From assembly GCA_963786955.1 (NCBI GenBank), contig CAWBAT010000005.1, positions 64,001 to 128,000 of the forward strand: 64,000 bases of DNA, in the 5' to 3' direction. This document shows positions 1 through 20,978 of this stretch, piece after piece. The stretch comes from an uncultured Acidimicrobiia bacterium. Lineage in GTDB: Bacteria; Acidobacteriota; Terriglobia; Versatilivoradales; Versatilivoraceae. The position numbers were made by a program, and so were the translations under genes. The notes beneath the pieces are model-generated. The model searched no databases, had not been told where the DNA came from, and saw nothing but the letters and a program-made list of their open reading frames with translations. Within the stretch, counting starts at the first letter, position 1, and each line of letters opens with the position of its first letter.

Positions 1-92
1 GGATCTGACGAGCACCGAATTTTCTGGATCGAGCGATCGAGCAGCGCGGGACGAATTTCCCGAAAAAGTGCATTGAGACAAAGGTTATCCAT
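1..92 (-). CDS. N-terminus of probable NFACT/Rqc2 (FbpA-like) ribosome quality-control protein, runs off window
   Basis: ATG at 92 overlapping the maf stop; reads MDNLCLNALFREIRPALLDRSIQKIRC, resembling the NFACT-N start (D..L.AL..E....L....I.KI). Only 30 codons visible. Confidence 0.5.
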   Translation of the reverse strand, partial: MDNLCLNALFREIRPALLDRSIQKIRCSSD

Positions 93-666
93 GATGCAGA
101 AACTCAGGCCTTCTCAAAATTCGATAGAGCAATGAAACGGGCAATCCCACCACGTTAAAAAAACATCCTTCGATACCCTCGATAAAGCGTGCAGCCTTCC
201 CTTGACTCGCATAGCCCCCAGCTTTATCAAATGGTTCGCCCGTCTCCAGGTAATCCTCAATTTCTTCCCCCGAGAGTTCAATGAACCTCACGATAGTGCG
301 CGCGGCATCGACAACGACGGTTTCTCCTTTTAGAACACATAGCCCCGTAATGACTTCATGGGACCGGCCACTGAGCCTCTGGAGCATCCACCTCGCTGCT
401 TCCGGGCTGCCCGGTTTCCCCAGGACATGACCTTCGCAGACAACGACCGTATCGGCACCGATGACTAAAGACTCAGGGCGGATAAGACGGATCGCCATGG
501 CCTTTTCTTTGGCTAAACGCTGCACCATCTGGGAAGGAGATTCCCCCGGCTGCTGAAATTCTTCAATCTGACTGGGAATCACTTCAAAATTGCTGCACAA
601 TAGGCCGAGCAAGTCCCGGCGTCGGGGAGAACTTGAAGCAAGAACCCAGGGTCTGTTTTCAATCAT
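85..666 (-). CDS. maf: Maf/YhdE nucleoside triphosphate pyrophosphatase
   Basis: LASSSPRR, IGADTVV, LGKP, DKAGGY and NVVGLP motifs. Confidence 0.95.
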   Translation of the reverse strand: MIENRPWVLASSSPRRRDLLGLLCSNFEVIPSQIEEFQQPGESPSQMVQRLAKEKAMAIRLIRPESLVIGADTVVVCEGHVLGKPGSPEAARWMLQRLSGRSHEVITGLCVLKGETVVVDAARTIVRFIELSGEEIEDYLETGEPFDKAGGYASQGKAARFIEGIEGCFFNVVGLPVSLLYRILRRPEFLHHG

Positions 667-749
667 TTGTTTTCGTCCGTAAGTTTAGTTTACAAGTCCA
701 AAAGCGGTATGATACAAAAACTTCTTAAGTCTTCTGCCGAAGGAGGGGG

Positions 750-2138
750 ATGAAAGATCTCAAGAGTGGTCTAAAAGTCATCATCTTGGTCCTGGTTTTA
801 GCCGCCCTCGATGCCTCATTCGAGGCGCAAACCAAAGAAGCGCCGAATTCTGCTCCCGAAGCTTCCAGTTTCGATATCAGCATTTTTTTTACGGGGAACA
901 TTCAAGGTAATATTGAACCTTGTGGCTGACCGCGCAATCCCGCGGGCGGTCTGGCTCGCCGTGCTCAGATTCTAAACGAAATTCACTCCGAATATCCGGA
1001 TAAGTTTAGGATAGAAGTGGAGATCGGGAATTACATGCAGAACCTTGGACCGGACCGGAGAGTGAAGAACAAATGGGTATTACAAGGTATGAAAAAACTG
1101 GGGGTTGAAATCCTGAACGTAGCCGAATCCGATATCGATGAACTCGAGGCTCAAGGGGTTGACTTCAATGCAGACGACCGATTTATTTCTGCGAATTTGA
1201 TCTCTTCCAAGACAAATTCTCCTCTCCTGAAACCATACCTTGTCAAGCAGATCGCCTTGCCAGAAACGCAAAAAAAATTCAGGCTCGGATTCTTGGGCCT
1301 CTCGGCGCGGGAAGGTTCCTACAAGACGGATAAGAAGGGTTATCTATGGGCCGATCCGATGGTAAGCGCCAAACAATGGATTCCAGAACTCCGGAAGAAA
1401 TGTGATTTTCTAATCCTTCTGGCCTGCATGCCTTCCAAAGACTCGGTACAATTGGCAGTCGATAATCCCGAGGTCGATGTTATTTTGAATGGTTTCAAGC
1501 ACCAGTGGAGTGACCCGCCCGCCAAGATCAATCAATCCACGATCATTTATGCAGAAGATGAAGGAAGAATTCTGGGTGAGTTGCGATTGCGTATCGCGGG
1601 GAAAGAAAAAGCGGAGGTGAATTCCGTCAATCATATCCTCACAAAAGTGGTGAAGGATGACCCCGAAATGGCCGCCTATGTAGCCCTTGCCAAAGAAGAA
1701 ATTACAGAACAACAGCGGATCCTGGCGAATGAGAAGCCTCTAATAACGGCCTCATCAGAACTTCGGGTCAACTCACCTTATCTCACCGCTAAGTCCTGTG
1801 AGAATTGTCACGCATCGGCTTACGAAGTATGGCAACACTCCAAGCATGCGAAAGCTATTGAAATTCTAAAGCAGGTGAAGAGAGAATTTGATTCATCCTG
1901 TGTGGGTTGCCATACGACCGGCAAGGGGAATGTCGGGGGATTCGTAGATCTCAATCAGACACCGGAATTGGCCAACGTCCAATGTGAGGCTTGCCATGGC
2001 CCGGGACAAGCCCATAGCGCCAAGCCGACCGAATCTAAAATGCTTAAACTCAATCCATCAGCCTGCTTGCAGTGCCACACAAGATCGAATAGTCCAGAAT
2101 TTGATTTTGCAACCTATTGGTCAAAAGTAAGACATTAG
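750..2138 (+). CDS. Secreted UshA-like selenoprotein fused to C-terminal tetraheme cytochrome c (c554-like); Sec at TGA 927-929
   Basis: RBS AGGAGG then ATG at 750, in frame with ORF 1017..2138. Signal peptide, then FTGNIQGNIEPCG-TGA-PRNPAGGLARR. SECIS-like hairpin 942-959. Four CxxCH motifs (CENCH, CVGCH, CEACH, CLQCH). 462 aa if TGA is read through. Confidence 0.88.
927..964 (+). promoter_or_regulatory. Bacterial SECIS element
   Basis: TGA, then stem GCGGGC(942-947)/GCTCGC(954-959) closing loop GGTCTG 18 nt after the UGA; possible lower stem GCGC(932-935)/GTGC(961-964). Confidence 0.82.
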
Positions 2139-2278: not shown

Positions 2279-2710
2279 ATGGATCAGTTAGGAACTCTCC
2301 TCCGTCAGGCTGCCAATTTACTCCCGCAACGACAGGAACTGAAGGAGTCCTTGGCTCTGGCACTCTGGGAACAGGCCGTGGGAGAAGCGCTGGCGAAGAA
2401 TACAAAACCACTGCGATTGTACCGCTCGACGTTGATCGTTATAGTGCCCTCGCAGGCATGGAGAAAAGAATTGCACCTCATGAGAACTGAGATCGTCACA
2501 AAAATAAACGAGAACGCCGGATTTCGATTGATCCAAGATGTTGAGTTCCGCGTCGACCCAAATTTTACAGTTCTCCCCGCTACCCCACCTCAGGTCGATT
2601 CAGAAACCCCTTCAAGGCCGCTGGATTTACCGATAGAGGCCATTTCCGACCAAGGCCTTCGCGACAGCTTGGTGGCAGCTGCCTCCAGTTACCTTCAACG
2701 AAGTAGATAA
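2279..2710 (+). CDS. dciA: DUF721/DciA family protein
   Basis: W..AVG..LA.NT.P, L.V.V.S.AW..EL, I..I.F.V pattern typical of DUF721. Confidence 0.8.
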   Translation: MDQLGTLLRQAANLLPQRQELKESLALALWEQAVGEALAKNTKPLRLYRSTLIVIVPSQAWRKELHLMRTEIVTKINENAGFRLIQDVEFRVDPNFTVLPATPPQVDSETPSRPLDLPIEAISDQGLRDSLVAAASSYLQRSR

Positions 2711-14376: not shown

Positions 14377-15065
14377 AAGGTCCCCCTTCTTTGGGTTTCT
14401 AATTGTCGCTGCAAGGCTTCAACGGCCTCTTGTGAACTCTCCAGATCAGTCCGAATTCTCCACAAGTAGAAATACAAGAAAGTAAATGCGGCGAGTGAGA
14501 GAAAGAAAGCGATTTTCATATGGGGATCGAGTCCCGAACCCTGGCCTCCTGCCATGACCGGGGAAGGATGCTGTGTCCGCCACCAGCGATTAGACATGTA
14601 AACAATCGGGACATCTATCGCCCCAAGGATTCCGAAAATGGCCGACAACCTGGCCCGTTGTTCCGGAGCCTCGATCAGGCGTCGAAGCATGATGTAGCCC
14701 ATATAGATCAGCCAAAGGACGAACATCGACGTTAGCCGCGGGTCCCAAGTCCACCAAATTCCCCATACGGGTTTCGCCCAGAGGGGCCCAGTGACCAGCA
14801 CGATGGTGGCGAAAATAGCGCCGACTTCGGCAGCGGCGGCCGCCTTAATGTCCATCTTTCGCGTTCCTGTTATTAAGAAAAGAGCGCTATAAACAAAAAC
14901 GGAAAGGATGGCCAGGAAACAGATCCAGGCTGAAGAAACGTGGAAATAGAAGATCCTTTGCACGTCGCCCATGGAAGCCTCGGTAGGCGCGTAGAGAAAA
15001 ATTGCGTAGATGGCGCAGAGCATCGTAACAAAGGTTAAGAGTGCCAGGACTTTCTGTGATTTCAC
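14373..15065 (-). CDS. ccmC: Heme exporter protein CcmC
   Basis: QRIFYFHV, WAKPVWGIWWTWDPRLT (WWD domain), WRTQHP; GTG start behind AAGGAGG. Confidence 0.95.
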   Translation of the reverse strand: MKSQKVLALLTFVTMLCAIYAIFLYAPTEASMGDVQRIFYFHVSSAWICFLAILSVFVYSALFLITGTRKMDIKAAAAAEVGAIFATIVLVTGPLWAKPVWGIWWTWDPRLTSMFVLWLIYMGYIMLRRLIEAPEQRARLSAIFGILGAIDVPIVYMSNRWWRTQHPSPVMAGGQGSGLDPHMKIAFFLSLAAFTFLYFYLWRIRTDLESSQEAVEALQRQLETQRRGTL

Positions 15066-15193
15066 TTCAGCCTCCTTCAGAAAAGTCATCCCCCCATTCC
15101 ATGTGCACGGGCGATGGCCGGGAGCCAATTCTCCAATGACGCACCCCAAAGCCGAAGGGTCACTCTGGTTGATCCCCTCCAGTTTCTCATTTT

Positions 15194-18944: not shown

Positions 18945-20978
18945 CTACGCCTTTATGAGGAGTTCCTTGACATCCAGTTTGACTTCCTGCTCTTTCCGTA
19001 AGGTCTTTTCATGCCGGTCGGGAAGCAGACAAATCAATGTTCCCACCATAAATACAAAAGCCCCTAGCCAAACCCAGGCGACCAGAGGGTTCAGAAAGAC
19101 GTGAATAATCGCTCGACTTCCGTCCTGATTGAAACCCAGAACCACATACAGATCCTCTTTCAAGGTCGAGCGCAAAGCGACTTCGGTGGTCGCTTGTTCA
19201 CTGGAACGATAGAAGCGACGTTCAGGCTTCAACGTCTTAATCTCTTTTCCGTCTCGATAAACCTTGATGATGCCCACTTCAGAAACAAAGTTGGCATTTT
19301 CCGTTTCCTTAATATCCTGCAGTTTCAGCGTATAGCCGCCAATCTCAACTTTGTCGCCCTTCACCATTTCTTTCTGAACTTCACGATTAAACCCGGAACC
19401 TGCAAACCCTACGAAGAGGAATACCATTCCCATATGCACGACGTAACCACCGTAACGACGCGTGTTACGAAAGGTCAGAATCCAAAGCGCCTGTGCATAG
19501 CTTTCTCCTTGCCGGCGGCGAGCCACCGCACCTCGATGAAACTCAGCCAGGATCGTGCAAGCCACAAACACGCACAGGACCAGGCACATAAAGGAATAGA
19601 AATTTCGCATGCCAAAAACTAAAAATAAAATTCCAACCACAACTGAGACGAGGGTAGGCATTGTGAAATTTCTTCGCAAGCTTTGCACAGAGGTCTTCCG
19701 CCAGGCCAGTAATGGCCCAACGCCAGTCAAGAAAAGCAGGAAGAGTCCTATCGGCACTTCTACTTTATTGTAAAAGGGTGCGCTGACCGTCCGTTTTTCA
19801 TTTTGGAAAAACTCGGAAATGATCGGGAAGATAGTCCCCCACAGTACCGCAAACATGGAACCGAGCAATGCTAAGTTGTTGAAGAGGAAGCTGCTTTCGC
19901 GAGAGACCACGGAGTCGAGGCGATTTTCACTTTTCAGAGCGTCGAGCCGCGTCAGCAAAAGGTAGAGACAAGACCCAATCAAAATGAACAGGAAGCTCGA
20001 AAAGAAGGGGCCGATCGGAGACTGGGCAAAAGCATGGACCGAAGAAACAATACCACTTCGAGTTAAGAACGTCCCAAAGATGCAGAGCAAGAAGGTCGAT
20101 AAGATAAGAACCATATTCCAAATCTTCATCATCCCCTTGCGCTCTTGCATGATAACCGAATGGAGAAACGCCGTGGCCGTCAACCAGGGCATCAATGAAG
20201 CGTTCTCTACTGGATCCCACCCCCAGTAGCCTCCCCAGCCTAATACCACGTAAGCCCATTTGGCACCTAAGAGAACCCCGATGCCCTGAAAAAGCCAGGG
20301 GACCATCATCCAGCGGCGAGTAATTCGAATCCATTCGTCGTCTAGGTCACGCGTGATCAAGGCCGCGATAGCGAATGCAAATGGGATCGTGAATCCGACA
20401 TACCCGGTATAGAGGACAGGGGGATGAATCACCATGGCCCAATATTGCAGCAGGGGATTGAGTCCCCTCCCATCCATGGGCGTAAATGGAGTGGCTGCCG
20501 CTCCTGCCCGGATTACACCAATCTGGTCAAAGGGGTTAGCCACAAAGTTGTTCAAGAGCAAAAAAAAGCCGGCAACTATGGCAATCACGCCAACCACATA
20601 AGGCATGAGATGACGGTTTCTCTTCCGATTCTGCATTACGGTTATAAAGGCGTAAATGCATAGAATCCAGCACCAGAAGACCAGCGACCCTTCTTGCCCA
20701 CCCCAAAGAGCTCCAAACTTGTAATACCAGGGCATGGCCCGGCTACTGTTTTGAGCTACAAATTGAAGGTTAAAATTGTTACTTAACAGTTGATACCAAA
20801 GTGAGAAAACGGTGAGCGTCACAAGGATGGACATTGCGATCACTGAATTTTCAGCGGTTTCGACTAATCGCCGGTGTCCTATTGCCCCCCCCAGAAATGA
20901 TCCGACAGCAGCATAACAGGCAAGGCAAAAAGCAAATAATAAACAGAATTGCCCGAAATCACTGACTAAGGTGAGCAT
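18945..20978 (-). CDS. ccmF: Cytochrome c heme lyase CcmF
   Basis: WGGQEGS, GLNPLLQ, HPP, WGGYWGWDPVEN, SVHAF. Confidence 0.97.
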   Translation of the reverse strand: MLTLVSDFGQFCLLFAFCLACYAAVGSFLGGAIGHRRLVETAENSVIAMSILVTLTVFSLWYQLLSNNFNLQFVAQNSSRAMPWYYKFGALWGGQEGSLVFWCWILCIYAFITVMQNRKRNRHLMPYVVGVIAIVAGFFLLLNNFVANPFDQIGVIRAGAAATPFTPMDGRGLNPLLQYWAMVIHPPVLYTGYVGFTIPFAFAIAALITRDLDDEWIRITRRWMMVPWLFQGIGVLLGAKWAYVVLGWGGYWGWDPVENASLMPWLTATAFLHSVIMQERKGMMKIWNMVLILSTFLLCIFGTFLTRSGIVSSVHAFAQSPIGPFFSSFLFILIGSCLYLLLTRLDALKSENRLDSVVSRESSFLFNNLALLGSMFAVLWGTIFPIISEFFQNEKRTVSAPFYNKVEVPIGLFLLFLTGVGPLLAWRKTSVQSLRRNFTMPTLVSVVVGILFLVFGMRNFYSFMCLVLCVFVACTILAEFHRGAVARRRQGESYAQALWILTFRNTRRYGGYVVHMGMVFLFVGFAGSGFNREVQKEMVKGDKVEIGGYTLKLQDIKETENANFVSEVGIIKVYRDGKEIKTLKPERRFYRSSEQATTEVALRSTLKEDLYVVLGFNQDGSRAIIHVFLNPLVAWVWLGAFVFMVGTLICLLPDRHEKTLRKEQEVKLDVKELLIKA

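Follow-up and report, generated by a model that had tools for sequence, protein, structure and literature searches.

This study concerns a gene near the start of a 64,000-nucleotide (nt) stretch of DNA, here called the window, from an uncultured bacterium assigned to the Acidobacteriota (positions 64,001 to 128,000 of contig CAWBAT010000005.1, assembly GCA_963786955.1). The segment 750-2138 is read as one gene for a selenoprotein of the UshA-like CxU family, in which a cysteine (Cys, C) and a selenocysteine (Sec, U) are separated by a single residue. Gene structure and recoding together give this reading a probability of about 0.9.

A single frame is open from the ATG at 750-752 to the TAG at 2136-2138, and its sole interruption is the TGA at 927-929. 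The default listing of open reading frames (ORFs) splits the locus into 750-929 and 1017-2138. The called ORF is the second of these; it begins at a GTG, encodes 373 amino acids and shares its frame with the upstream ATG. Gene finders would cut the gene short because the selenocysteine codon is taken as a stop. The gap between the AGGAGG and the ATG is 3 nt, a spacing shorter than usual. An earlier note on this DNA had described the open frame, the AGGAGG, the lone TGA and the late start of the called ORF, and all of these are as it read them. The peptide around the TGA is FTGNIQGNIEPCG*PRNPAGGLARR, and with the TGA translated as U it becomes FTGNIQGNIEPCGUPRNPAGGLARR. The motif E-P-C-G-U-P falls at residues 56-61, which places a P-C-G-U/C motif near the predicted mature N-terminus.

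Table 1. Features of the locus and its surroundings, in window coordinates
Feature	Position	Strand	Remarks
Full coding sequence	750-2138	+	462 codons, UGA-60 as predicted selenocysteine; stop TAG 2136-2138
Shine-Dalgarno-like AGGAGG	741-746	+	read from the sequence; putative function
Predicted Sec-type (general secretory) signal peptide	750-818	+	about residues 1-23
Degenerate 5'-nucleotidase/UshA/SoxB-type metallophosphatase-fold domain	870-1661	+	about residues 41-304; AlphaFold2 model, Foldseek, profiles
Cys58-Gly59-Sec60 (TGT GGC TGA), CxU redox motif	921-929	+	sequence; C58, G59 and C60 at least 90% conserved in alignment A1
Candidate selenocysteine insertion sequence (SECIS) hairpin	942-959	+	6-bp stem GCGGGC 942-947/GCTCGC 954-959; loop GGTCTG (GGUCUG) 948-953
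Long linker helix	1662-1733	+	residues 305-328; AlphaFold2 secondary structure
Cytochrome c554-like tetrahaem domain	1794-2135	+	about residues 349-462; PF13435
CxxCH motifs	1797-1811, 1899-1913, 1983-1997, 2064-2078	+	C350, C384, C412, C439
maf	85-666	-	divergent neighbour
dciA	2279-2710		neighbour
PF01578 match	14577-15071	-	frame of 279 amino acids
PF01578 match	20055-20705	-	frame of 678 amino acids

The gene family and its in-frame TGA

The protein matches the NCBIfam model NF041198 (UshA_like_PCGU, UshA-like (seleno)protein) with E 5e-77 and 259.6 bits, and on the profile evidence homology to this family is beyond doubt. Two parts of the profile are aligned, positions 11-276 and 357-518, and 277-356 are unmatched. 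The second part covers the cytochrome region, so the tetrahaem fusion already belongs to the catalogued family. Window protein and family share the P-C-G-U motif, a UshA-like N-domain followed by a C-terminal multihaem region, and the alternation of Sec and Cys. All 23 proteins of alignment A1 (the window protein and 22 database homologues) match the model at E <= 1e-5, the best with E 1.6e-79. The window's clade reads as a divergent subfamily of NF041198 with a shorter linker.

The earlier note had called CxU-motif UshA-like proteins a predicted selenoprotein family of unknown function, and the listings in PMC2398784, PMC9312934 and PMC13188914 confirm it. The first, a Global Ocean Sampling (GOS) selenoproteome, has listed 'COG0737, UshA-like, CxU' since 2008 with 76 Sec sequences and 92 Cys homologues, and counts it among the few major families without a Cys-based redox motif; the name is listed again in PMC9312934, and a 2026 review, PMC13188914, pairs NF041198 with 'UshA-like protein, CxU' in its listing. 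The features of that entry are all present here: COG0737-type homology, a CxU motif, and homologues that pair Sec with Cys. A literature search found no functional study of the UshA-like CxU family. The gene is therefore not new; it is a member of a catalogued selenoprotein family and adds no new principle. A second model, NF049981 (UshA-like selenoprotein family 2), resembles the N-terminal 90 residues weakly (E 1.2e-7); its motif is CxxU, in contrast to the CxU of the window protein, which at 31.5 bits against a cut-off of 140 is not a member.

When 60 relatives were searched in six frames, the gene turned up in every one of the 30 that belong to the window's taxonomic family, which span 11 genera, and in none of the 30 from ten other families of the class (E <= 1e-20). 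At 30 of 30 loci, comprising the window's own genome and 29 relatives, the codons read C-G-TGA-P. In the thirtieth relative, G029, the match starts only at residue 118, and direct reading of its DNA gives C-G-TGA-P followed by an internal deletion. Altogether all 31 family genomes retain the TGA, and their proteins are 48-100% identical to that of the window. Amino acid conservation holds on both sides of the TGA across these genomes, and the residues that precede it (FDFSIYFTGNVRGNLEPCG) are conserved with synonymous differences (alignment A2, columns 3, 6, 9 and 12). Translation therefore appears to continue through the TGA.

The database homologues bear this out from two directions. Cys at the TGA position, which the earlier note had proposed to look for, is found in 20 of the 22 distant full-length homologues (28-35% identity), where C-G-C aligns with C-G-U; the remaining two begin downstream of the motif. 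The 68 best database matches (46-99% identity) are all 5'-truncated gene calls of 259-392 amino acids that cover at most 84% of the query, which is what a restart of the gene callers after the TGA would produce. The names on these entries include 'hypothetical protein', 'Cytochrome c554 and c-prime' and '2',3'-cyclic-nucleotide 2'-phosphodiesterase'. Elsewhere in the window TGA ends 12 of the 38 open frames of at least 250 codons, so TGA has not been reassigned across the genome.

The genome also carries the machinery expected of an organism that uses selenocysteine, as had been proposed. Curated models identify selA (540.2 bits against a cut-off of 268), selB (364.3 against 242) and selD (382.2 against 125), and a tRNA-Sec scores 68.7 bits, above its curated cut-off; ARAGORN likewise reports a tRNA-SeC with anticodon TCA. 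This selC counterpart, a tRNA-Sec(UCA), lies on the same contig about 559 kb past the end of the window (G000:C5:686741-686833, minus strand). Among the 30 family relatives selA is present in 29, the exception being G029 (93% complete, 530 contigs). That genome was considered as a possible Cys form without selA, and the idea was rejected on the direct reading of C-G-TGA-P. With conservation and machinery taken together, TGA 927-929 is almost certainly a selenocysteine codon.

A sequencing error for TGC or TGT at 927-929, named in the earlier note as a way in which the reading could fail, is ruled out by the 31 independent assemblies. The public reads are uninformative on the point: in the four runs, available as contigs only, the sole cover of 927-929 is a 51-nt piece of run X1 that lists no difference there, too thin to weigh on either side. 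Contigs of an RNA-library run, X17, fall on 700-857 and 974-1269 with 95-99% likeness; such contigs cannot show RNA ends, and at best they hint weakly that a close relative transcribes the region.

In some relatives (G002, G004, G021, G029 and G030) the orthologue is matched in two or three pieces. That of G002, from the same genus (C2:838459-839846, L057), has an extra TGA plus a TAA, and that of G029 (C23, L129) is without about 45 residues following GGLARRAN. These split matches may be frameshifts, decay or assembly errors. Single-contig genomes occur among the family relatives.

Hairpins downstream of the UGA

Models of the bacterial SECIS place a hairpin shortly downstream of the UGA, with a G in the apical loop. 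The element GCGGGC-GGTCTG-GCTCGC, picked out in the earlier note, is a candidate for such an element and lies where the note had placed it (Table 1), with a G-led loop at a distance of 18 nt from the TGA. The proposed likeness to the Escherichia coli fdhF loop also holds. In the fetched K-12 fdhF sequence, as in the window, GGUCU occupies nt 22-26 counted from the U of the UGA and sits at the top of the hairpin. The two hairpins are unlike in that the window's has a 6-nt loop and an uninterrupted, G+C-rich stem of 6 bp, without the bulged U. A scan of 700-1100 against Rfam gave only chance-level matches to small nucleolar and long non-coding RNAs (E 3.7-9.6).

The 48 nt that follow the TGA are almost invariant among 30 orthologues, and three helices can be drawn in them. 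Hairpin 942-959 is paired in 96.6% of cells, with zero compensatory changes; a helix formed in part by the GA of the UGA is paired in 97.0%; and a shifted register, offset by 2-3 nt (stem nt 19-23/30-34, at 945-949/956-960, loop UCUGGC), is paired in 98.5%. The Gly-Gly codons GGC GGT, the source of the GGUCU letters, are invariant in 30 of 30 orthologues, whereas each of the same two glycines is written with four different codons among the 18 Sec forms from other families described below. This invariance points to selection on the RNA.

The functional SECIS could be the shifted register, or another downstream element, and not 942-959. The shifted stem has the higher pairing and tolerates three sequences with a G28 to C change, which breaks the closing pair of the 942-959 stem. 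It is, however, the less stable, at a mean of -8.9 against -10.3 kcal/mol for hairpin 942-959, and it leaves the invariant GGUCU outside the fdhF-like loop placement. With a ribosome positioned on the UGA, roughly the next dozen nucleotides are covered. When the first 13 nt after the U of the UGA are masked, 24 of 30 orthologues have hairpin 942-959 as their minimum-energy fold and 2 of 30 the shifted register. An element other than 942-959 is improbable, though not remote, and 942-959 is most likely the SelB-binding hairpin of the window's family, a candidate chosen on conservation, folding and the placement of GGUCU.

Sec forms elsewhere in the phylum carry a different hairpin, at UGA+24 to +40, which overlaps the codons for L-A-R-R-A-G. 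In 18 such forms from other families (L061, L063-L064, L066-L074, L076-L078, L080, L087 and L088; alignment A3, columns 37-53) it is 98.4% paired, with six double-change cells in two pairs. None of 500 shuffles matched it in pairing, double-change count or covariation score, and RNAalifold recovers the helix unaided. The relation is reciprocal: in the window's family pairing of the UGA+24 to +40 helix falls to 65.0%, and elsewhere that of the window-type helix falls to 62.0%. On these alignments two clades of one gene have predicted SECIS positions some 10 nt apart, that of the window's family being the closer to the UGA. As one part of a joint reading, it is tentatively suggested that the SECIS moved by this distance between the clades while the peptide it encodes, GGLARR, stayed unchanged.

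Several observations weigh against the interpretation of the locus given here. Among the 30 orthologues of the window's family, none of the three helices is backed by covariation, since the region hardly varies and so gives no means of preferring one of them over another. The ensemble of the free RNA is dominated by a fourth helix immediately downstream of the UGA (about 77%), which leaves hairpin 942-959 with a probability of about 8%. The folding energy around the UGA is no better than that of shuffled sequence (z -0.02 to -0.47). The authentic E. coli fdhF element likewise does no better than its shuffles (z +0.38), so this test does not discriminate. Since the Sec forms of other families use another hairpin, cross-family likeness lends hairpin 942-959 no support. 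The protein misses the curated equivalog cut-off of NF041198, 275 bits, by about 15. The neighbouring genes are housekeeping genes only and uninformative on function. Selenium incorporation, export and haem attachment are all three predictions.

Two other accounts of the UGA itself can be compared with selenocysteine. The codon might be read through with another residue, either Cys carried on tRNA-Sec under selenium scarcity or a near-cognate Trp or Cys, and Cys does work at position 60 in many homologues; the complete Sec machinery in the genome, the conserved hairpin at an fdhF-like distance and the cataloguing of the family as Sec/Cys make this very improbable. Still less credible is a true stop, with the real gene being the 373-residue ORF from GTG 1017 and 750-929 a separate small ORF or pseudogene remnant. 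Gene callers do treat the locus in this way, with two ORFs in the default listing, and the 68 best database matches are short at the 5' end. Against this, 930-1016 is preserved as in-frame coding sequence and can be aligned to the full-length Cys homologues; the TGA shows no drift in 31 of 31 genomes across the whole range of identities; and the 373-residue product would have no export signal despite its four CxxCH motifs. The preferred reading remains that the ribosome inserts selenocysteine at the UGA and continues to the TAG at 2136-2138.

Protein architecture and proposed chemistry

The earlier note had observed that the truncated ORF, for all its four CxxCH motifs, lacks an export signal and that readthrough adds one; both halves of this stand, the signal being a predicted one. 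The N-terminus has lysines at positions 2, 5 and 9, a hydrophobic run VIILVLVLAAL and then ALDAS, and is without a lipobox Cys. An in-frame ATG upstream of the TGA with a comparable hydrophobic stretch is found in 26 of 30 orthologues; in the other four there is no ATG in the open upstream frame. We infer export through a Sec-type signal peptide.

An AlphaFold2 model built with 72 sequences (mean predicted local distance difference test score 88.1, predicted template modelling (TM) score 0.84) shows an alpha/beta domain at about residues 41-300, a long helix at 305-328 and a small helical C-terminal domain. Foldseek matches the N-domain to UshA, other 5'-nucleotidases, CD73 and SoxB (best E 3.6e-19), and the family profile finds 5'-nucleotidases in the PDB with E 8.1e-26; a single-sequence search of the PDB with the N-domain gives E 1.4e-4 at best, with the motif region uncovered. 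The likeness to E. coli UshA and CD73 extends over the N-domain and linker, with a Foldseek E of about 1e-19 and a TM score of about 0.5 across 314-347 columns. UshA is periplasmic.

The metal-ligand signature of 5'-nucleotidases consists of DxH, GD, GNH[ED], a His and GHxH. The family profile was aligned by hhalign with a genuine 5'-nucleotidase containing PF00149 and PF02872, taken from another genome of the phylum (probability 99.5%, E 5.5e-23, 242 columns). In this alignment HTNDHHG of the genuine enzyme (DxH) faces FTGNIQG in the window protein (N50, Q52), DAGD (GD) faces EIGN (G93-N94, with N94 as the replacement), GNHE faces AESD (A125-E126-S127-D128, with E126 and S127), VHLG (the motif-IV His) faces ACMP (C226), and GHTH (GHxH) faces GFKH (F249). 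Thus seven of the eight signature positions compared are replaced and only H251 is retained. The motif positions visible in A1 vary across the family. Sec60 lies eight residues past the former DxH motif, in the loop that immediately follows what was once the first metal-binding motif. The two-metal centre reads as gone, and with its loss the N-domain is predicted not to be a phosphoesterase.

The differences from the relatives follow the same line. UshA and CD73 are 5'-nucleotidases with PF00149 and PF02872, in contrast to the window protein, in which the two-metal ligands are replaced, a Cys-x-Sec motif is present and a tetrahaem domain takes the place of the substrate-binding 5_nucleotid_C domain. 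PF00149 gives no match in the window protein at E <= 0.1, and PF02872 none in the protein or anywhere in the genome. The thiosulfohydrolase SoxB (TIGR04486; PDB 2wdc) belongs to the same fold family, is periplasmic and acts in sulfur chemistry. SoxB has a two-manganese site, for which the window protein has no counterpart, and the score against TIGR04486 is 34.8 bits where the cut-off is 550. That the N-domain is still a phosphoesterase (a 5'-nucleotidase, cyclic-nucleotide phosphodiesterase or SoxB-like hydrolase) with CGU as an accessory would suit its evident relationship to UshA, CD73 and SoxB, in homology and in fold, and database names such as the phosphodiesterase one quoted above, but the replaced and unconserved ligands, the missing PF00149, the exchanged C-terminal domain and the SoxB score leave this next to no probability.

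The C-terminal domain is the only one to score above its Pfam cut-off: PF13435 is matched with E 1.2e-17 and 65.1 bits against 20.8. The family profile finds cytochrome c554 of Nitrosomonas in the PDB (1bvb) with E 3.5e-19, and like that protein the domain has four CxxCH motifs. These motifs, together with H366, H422 and H462, are invariant in both the 23 and the 72 sequences. Three spare histidines for four haems leave one haem without an invariant sixth His. The three could provide three bis-His haems, with one further haem whose sixth ligand is open or different, which is the pattern of cytochrome c554. Cytochrome c554 is a free electron carrier, whereas here the domain is fused to a selenoprotein module. 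Matches to PF01578 (cytochrome c assembly, CcmC/CcmF-type) number three in the genome, and two of them are inside the window, 12-18 kb downstream of the selenoprotein gene.

A mechanism can be proposed on this basis. A ribosome reaching UGA 927-929 would meet a downstream hairpin, most likely 942-959, that recruits SelB with Sec-tRNA(Sec), and selenocysteine would be inserted at residue 60. The signal peptide would direct export of the resulting 462-residue precursor, which would receive four haems from the cytochrome c maturation system. The mature protein would have a 5'-nucleotidase-type fold without the two-metal centre, a long helix and a cytochrome c554-like tetrahaem domain, the last standing where true 5'-nucleotidases have their substrate-binding C-terminal domain. 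In those enzymes the second domain closes over the active site. Here the Cys-Sec pair would sit at the mouth of a disarmed hydrolase pocket, with a four-haem wire as the second domain, and would cycle between a selenenylsulfide and the reduced form, exchanging electrons with the haems. The analysis itself establishes how the gene is built, the pairing of Sec with Cys in homologues, the Sec machinery, the fold, the loss of metal ligands and the haem motifs; export, the choice of hairpin, the flow of electrons and the substrate are the parts of this scheme that we infer. The earlier note's picture of a periplasmic redox protein of 462 residues, selenocysteine plus four haems, is supported, its export and electron flow being predictions.

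As to function, the chance is about even that the protein is a haem-coupled oxidoreductase whose substrate is some small periplasmic molecule; kinship with SoxB makes a compound of sulfur or selenium a plausible first guess. A fuller proposal is more speculative and at present doubtful: a new kind of periplasmic redox enzyme, in which a disarmed 5'-nucleotidase pocket bears a Cys-x-Sec centre wired to a c554-type chain of four haems, one of them without an invariant sixth His, and acts on a sulfur or selenium substrate.

What the finding contributes is a corrected annotation, a SECIS loop placed as in fdhF, a SECIS position that differs by clade, and the demonstration that the metal site has been lost. 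The correction matters since database records of the gene are without the export signal and the predicted catalytic Sec. To judge from genome sequences, the UshA-like CxU family is common in the phylum and would join selenium to haem chemistry outside the cytoplasm.

Neighbourhood and distribution

The gene is flanked by maf, which is divergent, and dciA, with gatC, gatA and a histidine kinase gene as further neighbours (Table 1). No terminator-like site was found after the selenoprotein gene. Synteny was sampled in flanks of 8 kb at the window and 34 other loci, flanks of 1.5 kb being dominated by antisense shadow ORFs. A maf homologue adjoins the UshA-like gene on the opposite strand at 17 of the 35 loci, in many families and for Sec and Cys forms alike (the window and L091, L095-L098, L100, L102, L103, L105, L107, L109, L113, L114, L119, L121 and L124); at three of these loci the clustered ORF is a long shadow ORF that overlaps the target, and at two of the three the geometry is unreadable. 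The genes dciA, gatA and gatC recur at 8, 9 and 6 of the loci, respectively, and no redox or selenium gene recurs in these flanks. The neighbourhood looks like old vertical synteny of a housekeeping region, not a functional operon, and the adjacency of maf is probably ancient synteny.

A match at E <= 1e-30 is present in 97 of the 301 genomes sampled across the phylum, a tally that includes two genomes flagged as unpublished, G208 and G106, which carry no other claim. The 30 best loci comprise 20 with C-x-TGA (including the window's own genome and G208), seven with C-x-Cys and three outside the motif pattern. Shorter matches, with the UshA-like domain only and without the cytochrome part, are common in the phylum. 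Four short matches have an in-frame TAG, not TGA (G072:C16:38985-39851, G216:C1:1412044-1413105, G107:C20:112293-113234 and G277:C65:11234-12238).

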